Below are positions 1,444-63,934 of a stretch of DNA of 64,000 bases, piece after piece (position 1 is the first letter of the stretch; every line of letters starts with the position of its first letter). The notes below the pieces were generated by a model, which saw only the letters and a list, made by a program, of their open reading frames with translations, searched no databases and was not told the DNA's origin. The DNA comes from Eledone cirrhosa (taxonomy: Eukaryota), in NCBI GenBank assembly GCA_964016885.1, contig OZ024754.1, forward strand, positions 25,606,001 through 25,670,000. The letters run 5' to 3'. A program made the translations under genes and the position numbers.

Positions 1444-1445
1444 AG

Positions 1446-1490
1446 AACGATGTACTAGTTTCAAGCTTGTTAGCTATCATCAGCACCGTT
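1446..1490 (-). ncRNA. Type I hammerhead ribozyme, family A copy 1
   Basis: Minus strand AACGGTG-CTGATGA-T-AGCT-AACA-AGCT-T-GAAA-CTAG-TA^CATCGTT; 7-bp helix I. Confidence 0.75.
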
Positions 1491-1911
1491 TACCCATCTG
1501 CCAGATAGTTGAACGTTCGAAAGTATATACTTTCCTTATGAAAATTAACGGCTGAGCAGCCTAATTTGCATATTGAGTGAGTTAAATCGGTCAGGCATAC
1601 CGAAAACGATAAATTGAAACAAAATGAAAACGAAATTTCATTTCTCACTCTTAGTATGGCACTTACTTAAATGTAAGTATGCATGTATACGTACATACAT
1701 ATATGTATACAGACGTACAGTAGCATGCACATATATATATATATATACATATATATATACATATGCATACAGGTACACATACATATATGCACGTATCAGT
1801 TTAGCGGCGCTAACGTCGCTTTGTTCGTTTGTAAACAAACTGAACAGCCTGAATTTATGCCATACGGTGTTAAGGCAACAACGTCACCTTTTTGTTCAAC
1901 ACTGACACAGG

Positions 1912-1956
1912 AACGATGTACTAGTTTCAAGCTTGTTAGCTATCATCAGCACCGTT
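1912..1956 (-). ncRNA. Type I hammerhead ribozyme, family A copy 2
   Basis: Identical motif to 1446-1490. Confidence 0.75.
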
Positions 1957-2361
1957 TACCCATCTGCCAGATAGTTGAACGTTCGAAAGTATATACTTTC
2001 CTTATGAAAATTAACGGCTGAGCAGCCTAATTTGCATATTGAGTGAGTTAAATCGGTCAGGCATACCGAAAACGATAAATTGAAACAAAATGAAAACGAA
2101 ATTTCATTTCTCACTCTTAGTATGGCACTTACTTAAATGTAAGTATGCATGTATACGTACATACATATATGTATACAGACGTACAGTAGCATGCACATAT
2201 ATATATATATATACATATGCATACAGGTACACATATATGCACGTATCAGTTTAGCGGCGCTAACGTCGCTTTGTTCGTTTGTAAACAAACTGAACAGCCT
2301 GAATTTATGCCATACGGTGTTAAGGCAACCACGTCACCTTTTTGTTCAACACTGACACAGG

Positions 2362-2406
2362 AACGATGTACTAGTTTCAAGCTTGTTAGCTATCATCAGC
2401 ACCGTT
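2362..2406 (-). ncRNA. Type I hammerhead ribozyme, family A copy 3
   Basis: Identical motif. Confidence 0.75.
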
Positions 2407-2825
2407 TACCCATCTGCCAGATAGTTGAACGTTCGAAAGTATATACTTTCCTTATGAAAATTAACGGCTGAGCAGTCTAATTTGCATATTGAGTGAGTTA
2501 AATCGGTCAGGCATACCGAAAACGATAAATTGAAACAAAATGAAAACGAAATTTCATTTCTCACTCTTAGTATGGCACTTACTTAAATGTAAGTATGCAT
2601 GTATACGTACATACATATATGTATACAGACGTACAGTAGCATGCACATATATATATATATATATACATATATATATACATATGCATACAGGTACACATAT
2701 ATGCACGTATCAGTTTAGCGGCGCTAACGTCGCTTTGTTCGTTTGTAAACAAACTGAACAGCCTGAATTTATGCCATACGGTGTTAAGGCAACCACGTCA
2801 CCTTTTTGTTCAACACTGACACAGG

Positions 2826-2870
2826 AACGATGTACTAGCTTCAAGCTTGTTAGCTATCATCAGCACCGTT
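2826..2870 (-). ncRNA. Hammerhead ribozyme, family A copy 4, core-mutated (GAAA>GAAG)
   Basis: T>C at 2839 alters conserved A15.1. Confidence 0.65.
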
Positions 2871-3291
2871 TACCCATCTGCCAGATAGTTGAACGTTCGA
2901 AAGTATATACTTTCCTTATGAAAATTAACGGCTGAGCAGCCTAATTTGCATATTGAGTGAGTTAAATCGGTCAGGCATACCGAAAACGATAAATTGAAAC
3001 AAAATGAAAACGAAATTTCATTTCTCAAGCTTAGTATGGCACTTACTTAAATGTAAGTATGCATGTATACGTACATACATATATGTATACAGACGTACAG
3101 TAGCATGCACATATATATATATATATACATATATATATACATATGCATACAGGTACACATACATATATGCACGTATCAGTTTAGCGGCGCTAACGTCGCT
3201 TTGTTCGTTTGTAAACAAACTGAACAGCCTGAATTTATGCCATACGGTGTTAAGGCAACCACGTCACCTTTTTGTTCAACACTGACACAGG

Positions 3292-3336
3292 AACGATGTA
3301 CTAGTTTCAAGCTTGTTAGCTATCATCAGCACCGTT
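3292..3336 (-). ncRNA. Type I hammerhead ribozyme, family A copy 5
   Basis: Identical motif. Confidence 0.75.
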
Positions 3337-3753
3337 TACCCATCTGCCAGATAGTTGAACGTTCGAAAGTATATACTTTCCTTATGAAAATTAACGGCTG
3401 AGCAGCCTAATTTGCATATTGAGTGAGTTAAATCGGTCAGGCATACCGAAAACGATAAATTGAAACAAAATGAAAACGAAATTTCATTTCTCACTCTTAG
3501 TATGGCACTTACTTAAATGTAAGTATGCATGTATACGTACATACATATATGTATACAGACGTACAGTAGCATGCACATATATATATATATATACATATAT
3601 ATATACATATGCATACAGGTACACATATATGCACGTATCAGTTTAGCGGCGCTAACGTCGCTTTGTTCGTTTGTAAACAAACTGAACAGCCTGAATTTAT
3701 GCCATACGGTGTTAAGGCAACCACGTCACCTTTTTGTTCAACACTGACACAGG

Positions 3754-3798
3754 AACGATGTACTAGTTTCAAGCTTGTTAGCTATCATCAGCACCGTT
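3754..3798 (-). ncRNA. Type I hammerhead ribozyme, family A copy 6
   Basis: Identical motif. Confidence 0.75.
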
Positions 3799-4251
3799 TA
3801 CCCATCTGCCAGATAGTTGAACGTTCGAAAGTATATACTTTCCTTATGAAAATTAACGGCTGAGCAGCCTAATTTGCATATTGAGTGAGTTAAATCGGTC
3901 AGGCATACCGAAAACGATAAATTGAAACAAAATGAAAACGAAATTTCATTTCTCACTCTTAGTATGGCACTTACTTAAATGTAAGTATGCATGTATACGT
4001 ACATACATATATGTATACAGACGTACAGTAGCATGCACATATATATATATATATACATATATATATACATATGCCATACAGTGCCAGACTAAGAGTGAGA
4101 AATTTCATTTCATTTCATCCTATTCCATTTTATCGTTTTCGGTATGCCTGACCGATTTAACTCACTCAATATGCAAATTAGGCTGCTCAGCCGTTAATTT
4201 TCATAAGGAAAGTATATACTTTCGAACGTTCAACTATCTGGCAGATGGGTA

Positions 4252-4296
4252 AACGGTGCTGATGATAGCTAACAAGCTTGAAACTAGTACATCGTT
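4252..4296 (+). ncRNA. Type I hammerhead ribozyme, family A copy 7 (inverted unit)
   Basis: aacggtg ctgatga t agct aaca agct t gaaa ctag ta catcgtt read directly on +. Confidence 0.75.
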
Positions 4297-4597
4297 CCTG
4301 TGTCAGTGTTGAACAAAAAGGTGACGTGGTTGCCTTAACACCGTATGGCATAAATTCAGGCTGTTCAGTTTGTTTACAAACGAACAAAGCGACGTTAGCG
4401 CCGCTAAACTGATACGTGCATATATGTATGTGTACCTGTATGCATATGTATATATATATGTATATATATATATATATATGTGCATGCTACTGTACGTCTG
4501 TATACATATATGTATGTACGTATACATGCATACTTACACTTAAGTAAGTGCCATACTAAGAGTGAGAAATGAAATTTCGTTTTCATTTTGTTTCAAT

Positions 4598-5834
<1,237 letters not shown>

Positions 5835-6315
5835 TTGGTAAACGGAATAGAAAATGCTGACAAATTGTTCACAGTTGAAAAATGGTTTAATTAGGAATAA
5901 AAGAGTATTAGTGATTGTATGGGTTAGTATTCAGTTGTGGTTTTAAGTTTTTAAGTTTTTACCGGTTGCGCATTTCTAAATGCTTTTCAAAAATAATTTT
6001 GAGATAGAGTGTCCGTGCTGTTTGCTCTGATCTGATTAGTTTTGGGAATTCTACCTGTTTTTATGTAAGAAAAGTGGCTCCAGCGTTATTTTTGTGTTGC
6101 AAAAATGCTTGTGGTCAAAACAATTTTGATTGGTCGGTAGAGGTCATGTGAATGTAAAAAGTTGATTTTGCGCCAAGACTGTTTTTATGTTAAAATGTTA
6201 AAAAAGTAGCTCCAGCAAAAATTCTTGGTCAAAACAATTTTGATTGGTCGGTAGAGGTCATGTGGATAAAAAATTGGTTTTGCGCCAAGATTGAGAAATA
6301 ACTCTTTCAAAACAC

Positions 6316-6399
<84 letters not shown>

Positions 6400-6471
6400 T
6401 AGTAGTAGTAGTAAGGTGTTCGATGCTGCGACAATTGTCAGCAGCGATGTGTGTCAAATGGCTATTAAGAT

Positions 6472-6512
<41 letters not shown>

Positions 6513-6796
6513 GCAGAGTCATTCGAAGGTCAAAAGATATTTTTCAGCTTTTGTCTTATACGGAGAAGTGCGCGTGTGTGTGTGTGTGTGTATAAGTCTC
6601 TTTGTATGTTGATGTACGCGTGTGTATGTGTTTGTGAATATATATATGTGTGTGTGTGTGTGGACCAGTATTTTTTCCCCCTGGTAAAATGGTGTACATT
6701 ATTCCATTTTTTTCAGTAAAATCGGTTCTCTTAATAGAACATCTAAAATCTTAACAATAAAAGGTGTGAAATTATATTCACTATATATATATACAC

Positions 6797-7332
6797 AAAA
6801 GGACCATAGAATGAACCAAATTCTACGAACACACGATATCATAAAGAGCAAAAGACAATCCAAGTCAATGAAAAACATCTTAACACATGCCAAAGTACTG
6901 CCAACCACAACAACGAAACCCACAGTAAAAAAATGCGATAGACCCAACTGTGGAATTTGCATCAACCTAATAGAGGGTTCGGAATTCTATTTCAAAGATG
7001 GACAACGTTTTATAGTAAAACACAATTTCACATGTGCATCGGAAAATCTAATATATGTATTAACTTGTTCAGGTTGTCGAGAACAATACATAGGCCAGAC
7101 CAAAATCAGCCTCCGCCAACGCATGACTGTCCATAGATCCCAAATTAAAATACGGGAATACAGGAAAATACCACTGAGTGAACACATTGATACCTGTGCC
7201 GCCCAAAATCATCCCAACTTCAGAATCTTTCCCCTCTACAAATTTAAAGATAATGCCACCCACACCCAGCGCATCAGCAAGGAATCTTACTTCATTAACA
7301 AATACGGACCCCGTCTAAACACTTCTCCCTAA
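6797..7332 (+). pseudogene. Duplicated GIY-YIG endonuclease 3' fragment in the partial tandem copy
   Basis: Same peptide as 11673-12208 (CDRPNCGIC...NLIYVLTCSGCREQYIGQT). Confidence 0.9.
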
Positions 7333-7651
7333 GACGAACCCACAACATACACACGTCAACATACATACCTACATCAGCACACATCTCTACCCACATATAA
7401 ACACAATGACACACGTAAACACACATGCTCTATGGTGCAATACAAAAAAATATATGTGCATATATATGTATGTATATATGTATATGTATATATATATGTA
7501 GTGAATATATGTATGTGTGTGTATATATATATAGTGAATATCATTTCACACCTTTTATTGTTAAGATTTTTGATGTTCTATTAAGAGAACCGATTTTACT
7601 GAAAAAATCGAATAATGTACACCATTTTACCAGGGGGGAAAAAATACTGGT

Positions 7652-7694
<43 letters not shown>

Positions 7695-7852
7695 CACAAA
7701 CACATACACACGCGTACATCAACATACAAAGAGACTTATACACACACACACACACACACACACACGCACTTCTCCGTATAAGACAAAAGCTGAAAAATAT
7801 CTTTTGACCTTCGAATGACTCTGCTATATACACACACACACACACACACACA

Positions 7853-7917
<65 letters not shown>

Positions 7918-8618
7918 CTTAATAGCCATTTGACACACATCGCTGCTGGCCATTGTCGCAGCATCGAACACCTTACTACTAATACTCCACACACACACAC
8001 ACACACGTATACACACACCCACACACACACATACACACACACACACACATACACACACACACACACATATTTGTTGTGAAAGAGTCATTTCTCAATCTCG
8101 GCGCAAAACCAATTTTTTATCCACATGACCTCTACCGACCAATCAAAATTGTTTTGACCAAGAATTTTTGCTGGAGCCACTTTTTTAACATTTTAACATA
8201 AAAACAGTCTTGGCGCAAAATCAACTTTTTACATTCACATGACCTCTACCGACCAATCAAAATTGTTTTGACCACAAGCATTTTTGCAACACAAAAATAA
8301 CGCTGGAGCCACTTTTTTAACATAAAAACAGGTAGAATTCCCAAAACAAATCAGATCAGAGCAAACAGCACGGACACTCTATCTCAAAATTATTTTTGAA
8401 AAGCATTTAGAAATGCGCAACCGGTAAAAACTTAAAAACTTAAAACCACAACTGAATACTAACCCATACAATCACTAATACTCTTTTATTCCTAATTAAC
8501 CCATTTTTCAACTGTGAACAATTTGTCAGCATTTTCTATTCCGTTTACCAATATATAATAACTTGTGTGTTACACCTCTATTCTTTTAACTATCATATCC
8601 TCACACGAGATACAGAAA

Positions 8619-9923
8619 ATGCCAACAAAAACGGATACAACCCTCATCAACTCAAATGAAGAGATCCTACAGGAACTCAAGAAAATCAACACCAACCTAT
8701 CTTTGCTGGTCGACAAACTTGACTCCACAAATAAGGAAACCGCCACCGGATACAAACCCTCCGAAATCGGCGACAAACTCCAAAACCTTTGCGATGCTAT
8801 CCAAACTATGTTCACTACTACCAACCCAGGAAAAACCAACGAAGAACCATGTGAGATTGATTCACACAAAATGAAAATTCGAACAATTCCAAAATGGAAC
8901 AAATCCCTCAGAGACAGAAAGTTCTCATTCTGGAAGATGATACAAAATCACAACAAAGCAGAGATATATGAAAAATGGCTTAACTCAACCCCTCTAACTC
9001 TCCCCCGTAAACTACAAATAAAGTCCATTCCAAATGAACCCGAACCTCAAAGACACCTTAGGGAAAAAATGGCATTGGAAAAAATGAAGACAGAAATTGA
9101 ACTTCTTAAACTGAGGGCCCAGACAAATGAGGAAAAAATCAAAACCATCGATGAAGAGATCCTCCTGGAAATCAACAACAAAACTGAAGGCCCCAAGGTA
9201 GAGAAGATCTCCAAATTATGGAAAGGGGACTGCAACAGAGAAGAACTGAAATCCCTTCAACGCTGGGAAAAAAGTGCCGCTTGGTTCCTACACTATGAAT
9301 CGACTTTTCAAACGGATTACACCTCCAATAACCCGTTCATAAAAATAGGAAAACCCATAACTGAACCGCACAACTTCTCAAACCCCCAAGCCTCTAACAA
9401 ACGAAGAAGGAAGCACCACACCGAAGATGAACTTCCCAACCTCGCTACCATAAGAAGGAACAAAAACCCAAGAAATCATCTCCCCCAGAATGACATTTAC
9501 AACTTTCCCCCTTCAAGGAGACACCATACCAAATCACTCAACTACTACGCGGATTCCTCATCGTCAAACATAGGGAAAAGATACCACCGCCATGATAGAT
9601 GCAACAACTTCCCCGCTTCAAGGGGACAGCAAGGTAATTACCATTTTCTCAACTCTCACTTCCACAATACACAACAAACCCACACCACACGATACAACCA
9701 ACAACGTAGGCCACTTATAACACCACAATACATGGCACATAGAAACACACACCCATACTCGCAGTACAGGAACACCCCATTCAATCTACAACCACCAACC
9801 CGAACCACATTTTACAACAACAAGGAATATAACAAACACAGGAGACCACTTAACATCAGCAGACAACCCCTCTACCCCAACCATTTTTTAGACACAGCAC
9901 ACAGATACAGGCAAACAAAATAA
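8619..9923 (+). CDS. Penelope-like element ORF1 (coiled-coil-like N-terminus, basic/polar low-complexity C-terminus)
   Basis: Open frame from ATG 8619 (MPTKTDT...); heptad-like segments ILQELKKINTNLSLLVDKL and LEKMKTEIELLKLRAQTNEEKIKTID. Confidence 0.75.
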   Translation: MPTKTDTTLINSNEEILQELKKINTNLSLLVDKLDSTNKETATGYKPSEIGDKLQNLCDAIQTMFTTTNPGKTNEEPCEIDSHKMKIRTIPKWNKSLRDRKFSFWKMIQNHNKAEIYEKWLNSTPLTLPRKLQIKSIPNEPEPQRHLREKMALEKMKTEIELLKLRAQTNEEKIKTIDEEILLEINNKTEGPKVEKISKLWKGDCNREELKSLQRWEKSAAWFLHYESTFQTDYTSNNPFIKIGKPITEPHNFSNPQASNKRRRKHHTEDELPNLATIRRNKNPRNHLPQNDIYNFPPSRRHHTKSLNYYADSSSSNIGKRYHRHDRCNNFPASRGQQGNYHFLNSHFHNTQQTHTTRYNQQRRPLITPQYMAHRNTHPYSQYRNTPFNLQPPTRTTFYNNKEYNKHRRPLNISRQPLYPNHFLDTAHRYRQTK

Positions 9924-12208
9924 CACAAGACAGGGAGGAGAAACCGATAGTAATAAAAATTATCAATCTTACTAGTGCAGAACCAACACCCAACCTTATC
10001 AACTTACTCTCCAAAGGTCTTAAATTCACACCGACCCCACTACGTCCTAACTACTATGAAATGAAGGAAGACATCACAGACTTCTGTAGAAAGTTACGAC
10101 TTAGTGAACAACTATTCGACCAGTACAATGAGGATGAATCATTAGCCAGAAATAGAAGCAATTACACCCCTTCAAAAGGTAGAAATAAAATCCTGGACGA
10201 ATTCTGTGAATACATCACAAACTTCCCTTACCAACACTTGCACAGACAAAAACACAAGCCAAACCTCAACAAGAAAGAATGGGAAGAATTAAATAGATTA
10301 AAAACCAACAGAACCATTACAATTAAAGAGGCTGATAAAGGGAGTACAGTAGTCCTAATGGAGACAGAATTCTATATCAACTTAGCGCTCTCCACTTTGG
10401 AAAACGAAACATACTACGAAAAGGCTGAACACTACAATCAACAGAAAATTATGAGAAACCTAAAAACTCTAATCAACCAATACAAAGAAGGACTCACTAA
10501 CAAGGAATTCAGCTTCATCACAGACTTCACAAGTAAATCCAGCCTTTTCTACGGTATCCCTGAAGTACATAAAAGCGAATCAATCAGTAAGGCATGCAAG
10601 GAAGCCACAGACATAGTCATCAATGTCCCCTCACCCAATGATCTCAAATTAAGACCTATAAAAGCAGGCCCCGCTTGTGAAACGCACCGTCTTAGCAACT
10701 TCATTGATACCCTTCTCAAACCCTTCCTCAAGCACATCAAAAGCTATATAAGGGACGACCTAGATATGCTCAATCACCTCCCTAATATGCCACTTTCTGA
10801 ACAAATCCTACTAGTGACGTTCGATGTAGTCAACCTATACTCCAACATCCCCCACAACCTAGGAATAGAAGCTATCCAATTCTGGCTGGATAATTTCCAC
10901 AATGAACTCCCACAACGCATCAAAAAAGAATTCGTGATAGAGGGACTCAAATTTATCTTGGAGAACAATTACTTCGTTTTCAATAACAAACCCTACAGAC
11001 AGAAATCTGGGACCGCTATGGGAACGAAAACAGCTCCTACTTATGCCAACCTAGTCATGGGATACCTGGAAATCACCCTCTACACTAAAGTCCTAAACAA
11101 ATTTGGAAACACCCTCCACTTACACATTGAAAGGAACTGGAAGCGATATCTAGATGACTGCTTCATCCTTTGGCACGAAAACATCGAAAAACTTAAAGAA
11201 TTTCACACCCTTATAAATGGGCTCAACACAAATATTAACTTCACGATGGAATACAGCCATCAACAACTCCCCTTCCTCGACATCCTCATTAAGATCCATA
11301 ACAAAAAAATAGAAACAGACATATACTACAAGCCCACAGACTCCAAGCAATACCTCCCCTTCAACTCTTGCCACCCTAGACACGTTAAAATTAATATTCC
11401 CTACAACTTAGCCAAGAGAATCTGTACTATAGTCTCCAATAAAAACATCTGCTACTTACGGCTACAAGAACTAAAGGACACACTCATAGGCAGGGACTAA
11501 CCTGCATCACTAATTGACAATGGAATCCAACGTGCCCTAAAACTCAGTACCCAGGACCTTAGACACCCTAAAGTAAATCAACCAAAACTAAAAGCTCTTC
11601 CATACATCTCCACACACAACCCCCTCAACAATGAGGCCTTTGACACCATCCTCCAGAACATCCCTGTATTGAAAAAGGACCATAGAATGAACCAAATTCT
11701 ACGAACACACGATATCATAAAGAGCAAAAGACAATCCAAGTCAATGAAAAACATCTTAACACATGCCAAAGTACTGCCAACCACAACAACGAAACCCACA
11801 GTAAAAAAATGCGATAGACCCAACTGTGGAATTTGCATCAACCTAATAGAGGGTTCGGAATTCTATTTCAAAGATGGACAACGTTTTATAGTAAAACACA
11901 ATTTCACATGTGCATCGGAAAATCTAATATATGTATTAACTTGTTCAGGTTGTCGAGAACAATACATAGGCCAGACCAAAATCAGCCTCCGCCAACGCAT
12001 GACTGTCCATAGATCCCAAATTAAAATACGGGAATACAGGAAAATACCACTGAGTGAACACATTGATACCTGTGCCGCCCAAAATCATCCCAACTTCAGA
12101 ATCTTTCCCCTCTACAAATTTAAAGATAATGCCACCCACACCCAGCGCATCAGCAAGGAATCTTACTTCATTAACAAATACGGACCCCGTCTAAACACTT
12201 CTCCCTAA
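9890..12208 (+). pseudogene. Penelope-like reverse transcriptase + GIY-YIG endonuclease (one in-frame TAA at 11498-11500)
   Basis: IINL..LLSKGLKFTP, ADKG, FDVVNLYSNIP, GTAMG, RYLDD, LPFLD, SCHP; after the stop the same frame gives CxxxxCxxC linker and IY..YIG. Confidence 0.92.
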
Positions 12209-12673
12209 GACGAACCCACAACATACACACGTCAACATACATACCTACATCAGCACACATCTCTACCCACATATAAACACAATGACACACGTAAACACAC
12301 ATGCTCTATGGTGCAATACAAAAAAATATATGTGCATATATATGTATGTATATATGTATATGTATATATATATGTAGTGAATATATGTATGTGTGTATAT
12401 ATATATAGTGAATATCATTTCACACCTTTTATTGTTAAGATTTTTGATGTTCTATTAAGAGAACCGATTTTACTGAAAAAATCGAATAATGTACACCATT
12501 TTACCAGGGGGAAAAAATACTGAACCACCCACACACACACACACACATATATACACAAATACATACACACGCGTACATCAACATACAAAGAGACTTATAC
12601 ACACACACACACGCGCACTTCTCCGTATAAGACAAAAGCTGAAAAATATCTTTTGACCTTCGAATGACTCTGC

Positions 12674-12746
<73 letters not shown>

Positions 12747-12843
12747 ATCTTAATAGCCATTTGACACACATCGCTGCTGGCCATTGTCGCAGCATCGAAC
12801 ACCTTACTACTACTACTACACACACACACACACACTACACACA

Positions 12844-12924
<81 letters not shown>

Positions 12925-13461
12925 ACACACACACACATATTTGTTGTGAAAGAGTCATTTCTCAATCTTGGCGCAAAACCAATTTTTTATCCACATGACC
13001 TCTACCGACCAATCAAAATTGTTTTGACCAAGAATTTTTGCTGGAGCCACTTTTTTAACATTTTAACATAAAAACAGTCTTGGCGCAAAATCAACTTTTT
13101 ACATTCACATGACCTCTACCGACCAATCAAAATTGTTTTGACCACAAGCATTTTTGCAATACAAAAATAACGCTGGAGCCACTTTTTTAACATAAAAACA
13201 GGTAGAATTCCCAAAACTAATCAGATCAGAGCAAACAGCACGGACACTCTATCTCAAAATTATTTTTGAAAAGCATTTAGAAATGCGCAACCGGTAAAAA
13301 CTTAAAAACTTAAAACCACAACTGAATACTAACCCATACAATCACTAATACTCTTTTATTCCTAATTAAACCATTTTTCAACTGTGAACAATTTGTCAGC
13401 ATTTTCTATTCCGTTTACCAATATATAATAACTTGTGTGTTACACCTCTATTCTTTTAACT

Positions 13462-13462
13462 A

Positions 13463-13494
<32 letters not shown>

Positions 13495-55718: not shown

Positions 55719-56412
55719 TATGTACACGTACATACATATATGTATACAGATGTACAGTAGTATGTATATATATACACATACATGCATACATATATATATG
55801 CACGTATGGATTCACCGAACATTTATTATAATACTCGGTGTGTTTGTAAACAAGCATCCCGTATTAAGCCGTAGTGCCCAGCAACCATCGTTGCTCGTTT
55901 GTTCAACACTGACAAAGGAACGCTGTACTAGTTTCAAGCTTATTAGCTATCGTCAGCAACGTATACCTTCCTGCCAGATTGTTGAACGTATATACTTACC
56001 TTATGCATATTAACAGCTGAGTAGCCCAATTTGCATATCGAGTGGGTTGATCGGCCGGGTGCACCGAAAACGATAAACGGAAAAAATGTAACGAAATTTC
56101 ATTTCCCATTCTTAGTACGGCTGTTACTTAAATATAAGTATGTACACGTACATACATATATGTATACAGACGTACAGTAGTATGTATATATATATACATA
56201 CATGCATATATATATATGTGTGCATGTATGTATATATGTGCATATATATATATGTGTGTGCATGTGCATATACGTGCATATATATATGTGTGCATGTATG
56301 TATATATATATACATACTACTGTACGTCTGTATACATATATGTATGTACGTGTACATACTTATATTTAAGTAACAGCCGTGGGAAATGAAATTTCGTTTC
56401 ATTTTTCCGTTT
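55715..56412. mobile_element. Diverged family-A unit with partial tandem and 3' inversion
   Basis: Colinear similarity to the 1445-4601 unit; 56120-56210 inverted at ~56290-56380. Confidence 0.8.
55920..55962 (-). ncRNA. Type I hammerhead ribozyme, diverged family A
   Basis: ACGTTG-CTGACGA-T-AGCT-AATA-AGCT-T-GAAA-CTAG-TA^CAGCGT. Confidence 0.75.
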
Positions 56413-57790: not shown

Positions 57791-58162
57791 CAGATAAAGT
57801 CTTCTGCCAGACATGTACAGCACACAGTCTCAGATCAAGTCTTCTGCCAGACATAACACACAGTCTCAGATCAAGTCTTCTGCCAGACATGTACAACATA
57901 CAGTCTCAGATCAAGTCTTCTGCCAGACATGTACAACACACAGTCTCAGATCAAGTCTTCTGCCAGACATGTACAGCACACAGTCTCAGATCAAGTCTTC
58001 TGCCAGACATAACACACAGTCTCAGATCAAGTCTTCTGCCAGACATGTACAACACACAGTCTCAGATCAAGTCTTCTGCCCGACATGTACAACATACAGT
58101 CTCTGATCAAGTCTTCTGCCAGACATGTACAACACACAGTCTCAGATCAAGTCTTCTGCCAG
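57791..58162. repeat. 40-bp minisatellite (~9.5 copies; two 36-bp variants)
   Basis: CAGATCAAGTCTTCTGCCAGACATGTACAACACACAGTCT units without unique spacers. Confidence 0.95.
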
Positions 58163-58198
58163 ATAAGTTCAACTCCGAAATATGTTATTTTCTTTTTA

Positions 58199-58536
58199 TT
58201 AATATTTTATTATTTGCTGATATCTATATTTCTTTATCAGACATTTATAATATAGTAATACACATAAATACACTATGGCCATCTTAACCAAACTATCCGT
58301 TCCATCGGTCTTCATATCAAAAGATGTTGAATATTTTTTTAAACGATCGTCTACAGAAACCAAATACTGAAAATTCAATATATAGTTCACATCATTGTGG
58401 TGTTCGAATTCTGAAACATCAATTTGGCGATTTCTTAATAGCGAATTCATTGGTGGTATTTTGGGTACATTTAGTTGTGGATACAGGAAAAACTGGTATC
58501 GATGGGTACCATGGCCTGGTTTAGGGCCTATATAGG
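58199..58536 (-). CDS. PEBP (phosphatidylethanolamine-binding protein, PEBP4-like), probable terminal exon
   Basis: Pyrimidine tract + cag|CC TAT ATA GGC; [21 protein letters not shown]. Confidence 0.82.
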
Positions 58537-58645
58537 CTGGTGGTGGTGGAGGAATAAAGAAAGAAAGAGAAGAATAAGTGTCGTAGAGTAAACACACATA
58601 TACATATATACATACACACACATGCACACACACACACACACACGC

Positions 58646-59468: not shown

Positions 59469-59517
59469 GCATTCTGTCAGTTCTTGCAGCTTTTACACCC
59501 GTTTTCAATTCATTGCT
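59469..59517 (-). CDS. PEBP4-like internal 49-bp exon
   Basis: tttcag|AGC AAT GAA...AGA ATG C|gtaagt = SNELKTGVKAARTDRM+P; phases match both neighbours. Confidence 0.8.
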
Positions 59518-60143: not shown

Positions 60144-60230
<87 letters not shown>

Positions 60231-60259
60231 ACTATATATCTTTAATCTGTTATTTTAAT

Positions 60260-60290
<31 letters not shown>

Positions 60291-60452
60291 GAAATTGGAA
60301 TAAATGCTCTGAAATAGCGATATATATGTGAATATAGACATAGAATATTCGAAAATATTCTGTATGTTTATAATAAACATTTTGAAGACCTAATCGCTAT
60401 AGAATAGAATACGTCACGTATTACAATTAGATTCTCGATAAAAGCAAGGGAA

Positions 60453-60495
60453 GTAATCTACGCGTTTCATTCTTGTTAGAAATCATCAGGACTAC
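60453..60495 (-). ncRNA. Type I hammerhead ribozyme, family B
   Basis: GTAGTC-CTGATGA-T-TTCT-AACA-AGAA-T-GAAA-CGCG-TA^GATTAC. Confidence 0.75.
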
Positions 60496-60762
60496 ATATC
60501 CAGTGCTTTTATCGAGAATGACACAGCTAGAGACTTATAGAATACTTAGCTGTGTACAGGAACTGGTTTGAAAGAGCGGTTGCCGGTCCGGCAGAAATTA
60601 GAAATTGGAATAAATGCTCTGAAATAGCGATATATATGTGAATATAGACATAGAATATTCGAAAATATTCTGTATGTTTATAATAAACATTTTGAAGACC
60701 TAATCGCTATAGAATAGAATACGTCACGTATTACAATTAGATTCTCGATAAAAGCAAGGGAA

Positions 60763-60805
60763 GTAATCTACGCGTTTCATTCTTGTTAGAAATCATCAGG
60801 ACTAC
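60763..60805 (-). ncRNA. Type I hammerhead ribozyme, family B
   Basis: Identical motif, +310 bp. Confidence 0.75.
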
Positions 60806-61318
60806 ATATCTAGTGCTTTTATCGAGAATGACACAGCTAGAGACTTATAGAATACTTAGCTGTGTACAGGAACTGGTTTGAAAGAGCGGTTGCCGGTCCG
60901 GCAGAAATTAGAAATTGGAATAAATGCTCTGAAATAGCGATATATATGTGAATATAGACATAGAATATTCGAAAATATTCTGTATGTTTATAATAAACAT
61001 TTTGAAGACCTAATCGCTATAGAATAGAATACGTCACGTATTACAATTAGATTCCCTTGCTTTTATCGAGAATCTAATTGTAATACGTGACGTATTCTAT
61101 TCTATAGCGATTAGGTCTTCAAAATGTTTATTATAAACATACAGAATATTTTCGAATATTCTATGTCTATATTCACATATATATCGCTATTTCAGAGCAT
61201 TTATTCCAATTTCTAATTTCTGCCGGACCGGCAACCGCTCTTTCAAACCAGTTCCTGTACACAGCTAAGTATTCTATAAGTCTCTAGCTGTGTCATTCTC
61301 GATAAAAGCACTGGATAT

Positions 61319-61361
61319 GTAGTCCTGATGATTTCTAACAAGAATGAAACGCGTAGATTAC
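61319..61361 (+). ncRNA. Type I hammerhead ribozyme, family B
   Basis: gtagtc ctgatga t ttct aaca agaa t gaaa cgcg ta gattac. Confidence 0.75.
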
Positions 61362-61628
61362 TTCCCTTGCTTTTATCGAGAATCTAATTGTAATACGTGA
61401 CGTATTCTATTCTATAGCGATTAGGTCTTCAAAATGTTTATTATAAACATACAGAATATTTTCGAATATTCTATGTCTATATTCACATATATATCGCTAT
61501 TTCAGAGCATTTATTCCAATTTCTAATTTCTGCCGGACCGGCAACCGCTCTTTCAAACCAGTTCCTGTACACAGCTAAGTATTCTATAAGTCTCTAGCTG
61601 TGTCATTCTCGATAAAAGCACTGGATAT

Positions 61629-61671
61629 GTAGTCCTGATGATTTCTAACAAGAATGAAACGCGTAGATTAC
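61629..61671 (+). ncRNA. Type I hammerhead ribozyme, family B
   Basis: Identical motif, +310 bp. Confidence 0.75.
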
Positions 61672-61791
61672 TTCCCTTGCTTTTATCGAGAATCTAATTG
61701 TAATACGTGACGTATTCTATTCTATAGCGATTAGGTCTTCAAAATGTTTATTATAAACATACAGAATATTTTCGAATATTCTATGTCTATA

Positions 61792-61848
<57 letters not shown>

Positions 61849-62004: not shown

Positions 62005-62320
62005 ATAGTGAAAGATTGGAGAATAACATGATCAACAGTACAAAAAGGGTTTTATTTACAGTATTAACAATTGTTTCATTGATTAGGATGTCTAAAGGTT
62101 GCTAATCACTCGAAGTTGTGCCACTCAACCTTCAATTCAGTGTATACCTAATCAAATTATCGGAATAACTGATGATTTGATTAGGCATACACTGTATTGA
62201 AGGTTGAGTGGCACAACTTCGAGTGATTAGCAGCCTTTAGACATCCTAATCAATGAAACAATTCTTAATACTGTAAATATAACCCTTTTTGTACTGTTGA
62301 CCATGTTATTCTTCATTCTT

Positions 62321-62327
<7 letters not shown>
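62005..62327. repeat. Fold-back inverted repeat (~150-bp arms) made of two divergent long-helix-II HHR copies
   Basis: +: CTGATGA-T-TTGATTAGG..CCTAATCAA-T-GAAA-CAATTC-TT; -: TATT-CCGATAA-T-TTGATTAGG..CCTAATCAA-T-GAAA-CAATTG-TT^AATA. Confidence 0.8.
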
Positions 62328-62487: not shown

Positions 62488-62583
62488 GGCGATGTTTGTT
62501 TTAAGCCAATGAACATAACACAAGTTGACACTGACTATTGCGTCTGGATCTATCATAAGCAGCATATAATTTTCCTTTTCTAG
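62488..62583 (-). CDS. PEBP4-like internal exon (acceptor at 62583 or 62579)
   Basis: ENYMLLMIDPDAIVSVNLCYVHWLKTNIA|gtaagt; DPDA and HW..NI PEBP motifs. Confidence 0.85.
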
Positions 62584-62633
62584 CTTAAAATATGACTGAA
62601 GTAAAATAAAATAAAACTATTCGTATTTTATGT

Positions 62634-62741
<108 letters not shown>

Positions 62742-62935
62742 TGTATGTATAGTATATTTGATAATATACTGTATGTTTATTTTAAAACATTTTGAAGACC
62801 ATTGGCTATGAGTTTTAAAGTAGTGACTATGTCACTTACTTAGTCTCCGCAAAAAGAAAGGGAAGCAAGCGAAGGGATATGCAATCTAGATAACCGCAAT
62901 CATATATACATCGCTATTTCAGAGAACTGATACTA

Positions 62936-63934
<999 letters not shown>

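Follow-up and report, generated by a model that had tools for sequence, protein, structure and literature searches.

Metazoan non-long terminal repeat (non-LTR) retrozymes are tandem arrays of short non-coding units (150-450 bp) of low GC content (below 45-50%), each with a type I hammerhead ribozyme (HHR), and are dispersed in thousands of copies with target-site duplications (TSDs) longer than 4 bp (PMC7229834). Their expression and circles have been demonstrated, and a circular RNA serving as template for a borrowed reverse transcriptase (RT), the favoured candidate being the one from Penelope-like elements (PLEs), is the stated hypothesis of Cervera and de la Pena 2020 (PMC7229834). The hallmarks of endonuclease-bearing (EN+) PLEs are an inverted 5'-truncated copy, a 30-40-bp tail often found at one end only, and microsatellite targets (PMC8557442, PMC3846280), together with 8-10-bp TSDs and two adjacent internal RT starts downstream of the HHR (PMC8557442, PMC3846280, PMC11167929). 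Vertebrate retrozymes have been linked to PLEs, by origin or dependence, through phylogeny; their intronic copies are common (about 44% in Xenopus tropicalis) and their tandems are attributed to local amplification (Li, Clavereau, Pollet 2026, 10.64898/2026.07.22.740005). Here we analysed a 64,000-nt stretch of Eledone cirrhosa DNA (the window; contig OZ024754.1, positions 25,606,001 to 25,670,000) that holds an inverted array of 310-bp hammerhead units within a predicted intron of a PEBP gene, and the family to which this array belongs. We propose, at a probability of roughly 0.6, that this is a non-coding hammerhead family of (TA)n tracts whose arrays are made by a trans-acting PLE RT/endonuclease that primes both target ends on one RNA, most likely a ribozyme-made 310-nt circle.

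The locus had been described, in a preliminary account, as a near-perfect palindrome of about 1.5 kb built from essentially identical, very recent 310-bp units with two HHRs on each strand, and this description was borne out. The period is 310, with 2.5 + 2.4 copies at 99% matches, a single base difference private to one arm lies at 60811, and when the window was scanned on both strands with a descriptor, four type I cores emerged at this locus (CUGAUGA starting at 61325 and 61635 on the plus strand and at 60799 and 60489 on the minus strand). An inverted-repeat search placed arms of 735 nt at 60320-61054 and 61070-61804. The full arms are of unequal length, the left one having 38 additional outer bases that are missing from the preliminary description (Table 1). 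With unit position 1 set at the first base 3' of the predicted cleavage site, the tail-bearing arm extends from position 25 at its inner end to position 168 at its outer 3' end, and the short-ended arm from position 7 at its inner end to position 130 at its outer 3' end, directly before an internal CATATATAT.

Table 1. Coordinates in the window of the array, its ribozymes, and neighbouring features
Feature	Position	Strand	Remarks
Tail-bearing arm	60291..61054	-	764 nt, ~2.5 units; RNA-sense on minus strand
Tail	60291..60328	-	38 nt, unit positions 131-168; only at outer end of left arm
Short-ended arm	61052..61795	+	744 nt, ~2.4 units; RNA-sense on plus strand
Inversion junction	61052..61054		3-nt microhomology common to both arms
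Cleavage-to-cleavage 310-nt unit (predicted circle)	61356..61665	+	minus-strand counterpart 60459-60768
Left-hand (TA)n target tract	60182..60290		
(TA)n target tract, right flank	61796..61846		
Type I hammerhead	61319..61361	+	predicted cleavage after 61355
Type I hammerhead	61629..61671	+	predicted cleavage after 61665
Type I hammerhead	60763..60805	-	predicted cleavage after 60769
Type I hammerhead	60453..60495	-	predicted cleavage after 60459
16-bp helix I extension	61295..61383	+	61295-61310 pairs with 61368-61383; encloses hammerhead, recurs at each motif
Young autonomous PLE	5829-13467		RT, Cys-rich linker, GIY-YIG
Predicted PEBP exon (DPDA...HWLKTNI)	62488..62595	-	upstream of host intron; AG/GTAAGT
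Candidate middle PEBP exon	59469..59517	-	downstream of host intron; in phase with neighbours, AG/GTAAGT
PEBP exon with YIGP...GTHRY (lower limit provisional)	58330..58536	-	PF01161
Relic, putative short two-arm copy of older sister subfamily	62738..62937		~82% identity, two stretches, between (TA)n tracts

The size of the unit, its base composition (106 G+C of 310) and its tandem non-coding layout fall within the range of the non-LTR retrozymes, as do the canonical type I HHR in every unit, present at least twice in tandem, and the dispersal of the family in many copies with TSDs longer than 4 bp. The array consists of the 310-nt unit only and no long reading frame is found among the open reading frames (ORFs) listed, unlike an autonomous PLE, in which an RT and GIY-YIG ORF would be expected. 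Each unit bears one HHR of single polarity, unlike viroid-like or satellite RNAs with a ribozyme on each polarity; HHRs occur on both DNA strands of the locus only because the array is inverted. The family further differs from EN+ PLEs in that its HHR is canonical instead of minimal and its copies are multimers of one short unit. It differs from the described retrozymes in that its copies normally take the shape of a two-armed inverted array with one tail ('inverted' is absent from the main text of PMC7229834) and in that it is known here from genomic sequence.

This form is that of the family and no peculiarity of one locus. A pattern search of the genome found 4,177 exact 43-nt HHR cores (control 0), and 685 forward matches to the tail-end pattern correspond to about 1,400 insertions on both strands (the reverse count of 1,200 was not used, as it counts loci twice). 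We parsed 92 stretches of contig C1, chosen by HHR, tail end or short end, together with the window; all sampled loci except the window lie in the first 165 Mb of C1, L041 was replaced by L112, and L034 and L035 were treated as one. The 93 parsed elements comprised 81 with two arms (one of them cut by the fetch limit) and 12 with a single arm. Older sister subfamilies, with 67-83% identity and similar tail ends in (TA)n, occur at L168-L197 (with a ~320-bp period in L177), and one motif shared with them gives 302 matches.

Two-arm insertions obey a strict end rule. All join 5'-to-5', with the RNA 3' ends pointing outward into (TA)n, and each of the 80 complete insertions has one short outer end and one tail end, none having two alike. 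The short end lies at unit position 130 in 46, at 139 in 18 and at 118-134 in 16, the last calls being mostly shortened by a nearby variant; the tail end lies at position 165 in 58 (whole range 157-172), giving exactly one arm a 3' end that is longer by ~35 nt (80/80). The rule held across selection classes (58/58 tail-picked, 11/11 short-end-picked and 10/10 HHR-picked loci, plus the window): a second tail was seen in 0/58 tail-picked loci, and a tail lay opposite in 11/11 picked by the short end. The short end sits at the internal CATATATAT (131-139), which is able to pair with a (TA)n overhang. By a strict count both 12-nt flanks are TA-rich in 68/80 insertions, the remainder being mostly end-calling offsets from nearby variants. 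In 10/80 loci an interrupted TA tract recurs on the far side of the insertion, mostly over 9-11 bp (a count made without a chance control), and TSDs are uninformative in loci with pure (TA)n. The AT-rich microsatellite target and the inverted 5'-truncated copy with a one-sided 30-40-bp tail are those of a PLE-mobilised insertion. In the published accounts of EN+ PLEs surveyed here, the tail is optional and ascribed to EN resolution or self-priming (PMC8557442, PMC3846280, PMC11167929), whereas here there is exactly one in every complete two-arm insertion. In vitro, a PLE protein starts copying at two adjacent sites inside the RNA, which delimit the tail, and does so on both target strands (PMC11167929).

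The same observations bear on the possibility that a fold-back read, a danger that the preliminary description had itself named, or an assembly error produced the palindrome. Palindromes and (TA)n tracts are error-prone, and the window junction was spanned by no record in four read runs. Nevertheless, the flanks are unlike each other, the outer ends of the arms lie at different unit positions, one base difference is private to one arm, and the same two-end rule with other junctions recurs at 79 further loci and in a second, autonomous family (see below). Contigs of read run X2, which may be the assembly's own sample and in which there are many unit variants, also show the unit giving way to (TA)n, at positions 139 and ~170. 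An artefact is therefore almost certainly the wrong explanation.

The inner ends of the arms follow no comparable rule. The preliminary description placed the inversion point at the helix I extension, which is correct for this copy but does not extend to the family, where the inner ends of 160 arms are spread across the whole monomer (chi-square p = 0.24). Microhomology of at least 2 nt was present at 32/51 insert-free junctions (18% by chance), and 29/80 junctions carry inserts of 1-272 nt. These junctions can be set against a scheme with a single target-primed cDNA, in which DNA is the template of the second arm: either the cDNA folds back and primes itself, as in the model of PMC3846280, or the second target end invades the first arm at its ATATATAT, with a deletion at the palindrome centre to follow. 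Such copying would account for haplotype sharing between arms, for three in-register variants, and for a short end that always lies at internal TA homology. It would also fit a slight excess of near-symmetric arms (5 versus 1.9 expected at a width of 30 nt, p = 0.04, five widths having been tried), which include the window locus itself, where a fold-back of 3 bp closing a loop of 15 nt would reproduce the junction. However, arms are offset in phase at random (14/80 within 25 nt against an expected 13.2), the lengths of the two arms show a weak correlation (rho 0.21, p = 0.06), and either arm may be longer by more than 100 nt (the short arm in 32/80, the tail arm in 37/80), all of which, with the scattered inner ends, makes fold-back self-priming a misfit for the bulk of insertions. 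The 3 in-register shared variants stand against 110 that are unshared, and in the window it is the tail-less arm that reaches further in, while a fold-back copy could not gain a tail. We consider a DNA-copied arm decidedly unlikely, and in this the family departs from the self-priming view of EN+ PLEs. At two junctions (L052 and L094) the full 16-bp inverted repeat serves as the microhomology. The 272-bp insert at the junction of L036 (2599-2870) corresponds at 96-98% to a repeat that forms a cluster on C25 (19-24 Mb) and is possibly a template jump to another RNA.

Because the family is large, very young and almost mutation-free, each insertion records its start sites, its stop sites and the haplotype of its template. 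Scored against the window's unit as yardstick, 106 variant-by-locus cases were fixed in every covered monomer of both arms and 1 in one arm only; a further 17 were partial, 110 sporadic and 24 uninformative. There were 29 haplotypes in 81 loci, and where both arms measured at least 640 nt they agreed at 12 marker sites in 48/50 loci (permuted mean 8.0, maximum 18 in 5,000 permutations). Most arms (143/160) exceed one unit, and long arrays are filled by rare haplotypes, for example in 24/24 monomers of L106. We counted 735 passes of RT over the cleavage site, but 2 stops within positions 1-6 (3.1 expected) and 3 sporadic variants nearby (3.9 expected, no enrichment). The lack of stops or of a scar at this site speaks against a template that is cleaved and linear, as well as against end-to-end jumps.

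Substitutions within the HHR differ sharply by class. All 8 distinct locus-fixed substitutions are of a tolerated kind (at a variable core position, in loops, or with pairing kept or improved), whereas all 10 sporadic ones hit the core or pairs (Fisher p = 2.3e-5, on our own classing by the HHR consensus that we take to apply), and 3/3 fixed changes in the 16-bp stem are G.U-compatible. Judged by this pattern, the ribozyme is under purifying selection in transmitted copies. A needed ribozyme, multimeric arms, uniform monomers and an unscarred cleavage site would together be best fitted by a ligated monomer circle.

A rather unlikely alternative is that PLE twin priming takes place on a long linear multimeric transcript that is never cleaved, local DNA amplification keeping the arrays uniform and lengthening them and the circle being a by-product or absent. 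Several loci fit it. In L076, L100 and L120 a variant lies in the same register in both arms yet is absent from some monomers, L070 and L109 switch haplotype between or within arms in a manner consistent with continuity from arm to arm, and variants repeat at intervals in L034/35, L036 and L056, with periodic duplications in L034/35 and L056. In addition, insertion by the PAc element in vitro needs no HHR cleavage (PMC11167929), and local amplification of PLE ends has been proposed (10.64898/2026.07.22.740005). On the other hand, gradual homogenisation would not be expected to leave 106 fully fixed against 17 partial variants, rare haplotypes fill long arrays, sporadic variants are shared between loci only near chance (7 pairs versus 5.2), and purifying selection on the ribozyme is hard to explain with an uncleaved template. 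Since the in-register, switching and periodic patterns are foreign to a pure monomer circle, linear or multimeric templates, template switches, or later conversion and duplication also occur.

Two further signals were set aside. An A-to-I editing signature among fixed variants (8 A>G versus 3 T>C among 26 distinct substitutions) involved too few changes to call. Single 340-nt circular contigs identical to the unit, from runs X1, X3 and X6, were rejected as evidence of circles, as tandem DNA collapses in the same way and none of the runs listed as containing the unit is registered as RNA.

Each HHR comprises a 6-bp helix I (GUAGUC/GAUUAC), the sequence CUGAUGA, a helix II of 4 bp that rests on a U.U mismatch, the sequence GAAA and a palindromic ACGCGU helix III, with cleavage predicted after GUA, in a numbering and consensus that we take to hold for this motif. 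The 59-nt HHR by itself is no more stable than its shuffles (z = -0.69), while the enclosing 16-bp extension of helix I folds as the preliminary description had claimed (91-nt stretch, z = -6.98, 0/200 shuffles equally stable) and the 310-nt unit is also more stable than expected (z = -3.11, 0/100 shuffles equally stable). Rfam gave no match at gathering score for the region; the top ribozyme match was Hammerhead_HH9 (19.2 bits, E 0.24, cut-off 52), and other Rfam matches were weak or hairpin-driven. The HHR layout is that of the canonical metazoan type I motif, which functions as a dimer (PMC4209133). Taken together, the anatomy of the very recent hammerhead-bearing unit and its pattern in the population point to a circular RNA of ~310 nt.

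We envisage the following course of events. A multimeric transcript would self-cleave, most probably in a dimeric form held by the palindromic ACGCGU helix III, after which ligation would close the monomer to a circle. A staggered cut of ~9-11 bp would then be made in (TA)n. One target end would prime at ~165 with only 2-3 nt of homology, and the other would anneal to the internal AUAUAUAU (131-139) and start at 130 or 139, which are the end positions observed. Each RT would roll along the circular template over distances that vary (median ~1 kb, up to >8 kb), with no preferred stop, and the two cDNA ends would finally be joined through the microhomologies or short inserts seen at the junctions. 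In L1 twin priming, too, both target ends prime on RNA and the 5' inversion is joined by microhomology. There it is a minority outcome in which non-overlapping cDNAs start at variable internal sites, whereas here the two-arm form is the rule, with two fixed starts ~35 nt apart and overlapping copies.

Several observations weigh against this scheme, beyond the near-symmetric arms and the in-register, switching and periodic loci given above. Of the 12 single-armed elements among the 93 parsed, nine end in microsatellite (an N gap, in two cases, or the fetch limit, in one, stops the other 3), and 6 loci have a fixed 1-nt insertion in helix I, which was left out of the tolerated/damaging classing. 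In its U.U at the base of helix II the motif resembles axolotl HHR_Amex2, a weak cleaver (PMC7229834), and 8/9 Xenopus retrozyme dimers remained uncleaved in vitro (10.64898/2026.07.22.740005). With the anole PLE, HHR cleavage was dispensable in vitro and start sites were alike on both strands (PMC11167929). Finally, no autonomous partner with shared sequence was found in the PLE family of the window or at 30 sister-family loci.

The autonomous PLE of the window is young; alongside an inverted 5' copy it has a partial tandem, and its tail of ~40 nt is on one side only. It is present in at least 131 copies at 98-100% protein identity, with 4,582 short-end and 3,228 tail-end matches genome-wide. 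Among neighbouring end pairs within 12 kb on C1, drawn from the first 100 short-end and 66 tail-end matches there, 48/49 consisted of one short and one tail end facing outward. A relaxed scan found no HHR near its pseudo-LTR, and the 310-bp unit showed no sequence similarity to it or to 30 of its copies. This PLE, having no detectable sequence in common with the 310-bp family, is an analogue and no proven partner. Of the 302 sister-family matches, 30 were inspected and gave no attached PLE ORF, and PLE fragments near L188, L197 and L178, considered as a partner, did not look attached to the repeat.

How the copies are transcribed is constrained by their shape. The preliminary description held that transcription from either direction would yield a full monomer, which we find doubtful. 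Read-through would cross the antisense arm first, and for the transcript the predicted fold is a single long duplex (-1,287 kcal/mol, 682/730 pairs spanning >100 nt). As such a duplex would bury the ribozymes, release of monomers by read-through, including from PEBP pre-mRNA, is questionable, and loci with an internal start or very unequal arms would more likely be the productive ones.

The intronic setting itself agrees, as a gene prediction, with the preliminary description: the array lies between two predicted minus-strand PEBP exons (Table 1), of which the downstream one was 1 of 8 candidates in a relaxed scan, a stricter scan giving none. PF01161 matched at 58373-58582 (E 1.5e-5), and a PF01161 search of the whole genome gave no match at this PEBP gene. 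A diverged relic that had been noted at ~62765-62925 is real, with 82% identity over 82 nt (62729-62809) and 82% over 38 nt (62900-62937) on opposite strands. It looks like a short two-arm copy from an older sister subfamily, and the descriptor scan of the window found no intact hammerhead core in it. The same intron contains a hairpin at 62005-62327 (two arms of 157 nt with 94% complementarity around a 9-nt loop), which may be a further short inverted insertion. A 28-bp direct repeat (60240-60267 and 63304-63331) that ends in (TA)n flanks both array and relic; it was set aside as a TSD, as the element ends lie elsewhere. Just past the PEBP exon, at 57791-58163, is a 40-bp minisatellite of 9.5 copies. 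A second hammerhead repeat family, with a 466-bp unit and an ACUAGU helix III, forms an inverted array between (TA)n tracts at 1445-4598, its outer ends lying at unit positions other than those of the 310-bp family; one more hammerhead core occurs near 55956 (55926-55956).

By its sequence, the 310-bp family has the make-up of a non-LTR retrozyme (PMC7229834) and appears to behave as a non-autonomous PLE. The class and the single PLE hallmarks were already known; the mechanistic evidence is new. The origin of PLE tandem and inverted structures and of their tails was stated as open (PMC8557442), and the retrozyme circle as template of tandem cDNA is a hypothesis (PMC7229834) that competes with local amplification (10.64898/2026.07.22.740005). 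Where the vertebrate link to PLEs is phylogenetic, the insertion signature found here favours amplification during reverse transcription. In the literature surveyed, outside which lie supplements (Fig. S9 of PMC7229834, Fig. S2 of PMC11167929) and subscription papers, we found no earlier description of the strict one-tail rule, of single-template evidence or of ribozyme selection between generations; nor did any title or abstract in it describe twin priming or rolling-circle reverse transcription for PLEs or retrozymes.

These results may have a wider meaning, which we would put at even odds: that Penelope-type integration is obligately two-ended, a dimeric RT/endonuclease starting on both target strands from two separate sites of a single RNA, one through homology and the other without, so that tail and inversion are the footprint of every complete event. 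The retrozyme would then be a viroid-like circle amplified by twin-primed rolling-circle RT, its ribozyme selected in each generation. The family provides genomic evidence for a ribozyme circle as transposition intermediate, and it defines a precise substrate for work in vitro (a 310-nt circle, a (TA)n target, and starts at 130/139 and 165). For the host, each insertion adds a perfect hairpin of 1-10 kb to the genome, here within a predicted PEBP intron, which would be a source of double-stranded RNA.
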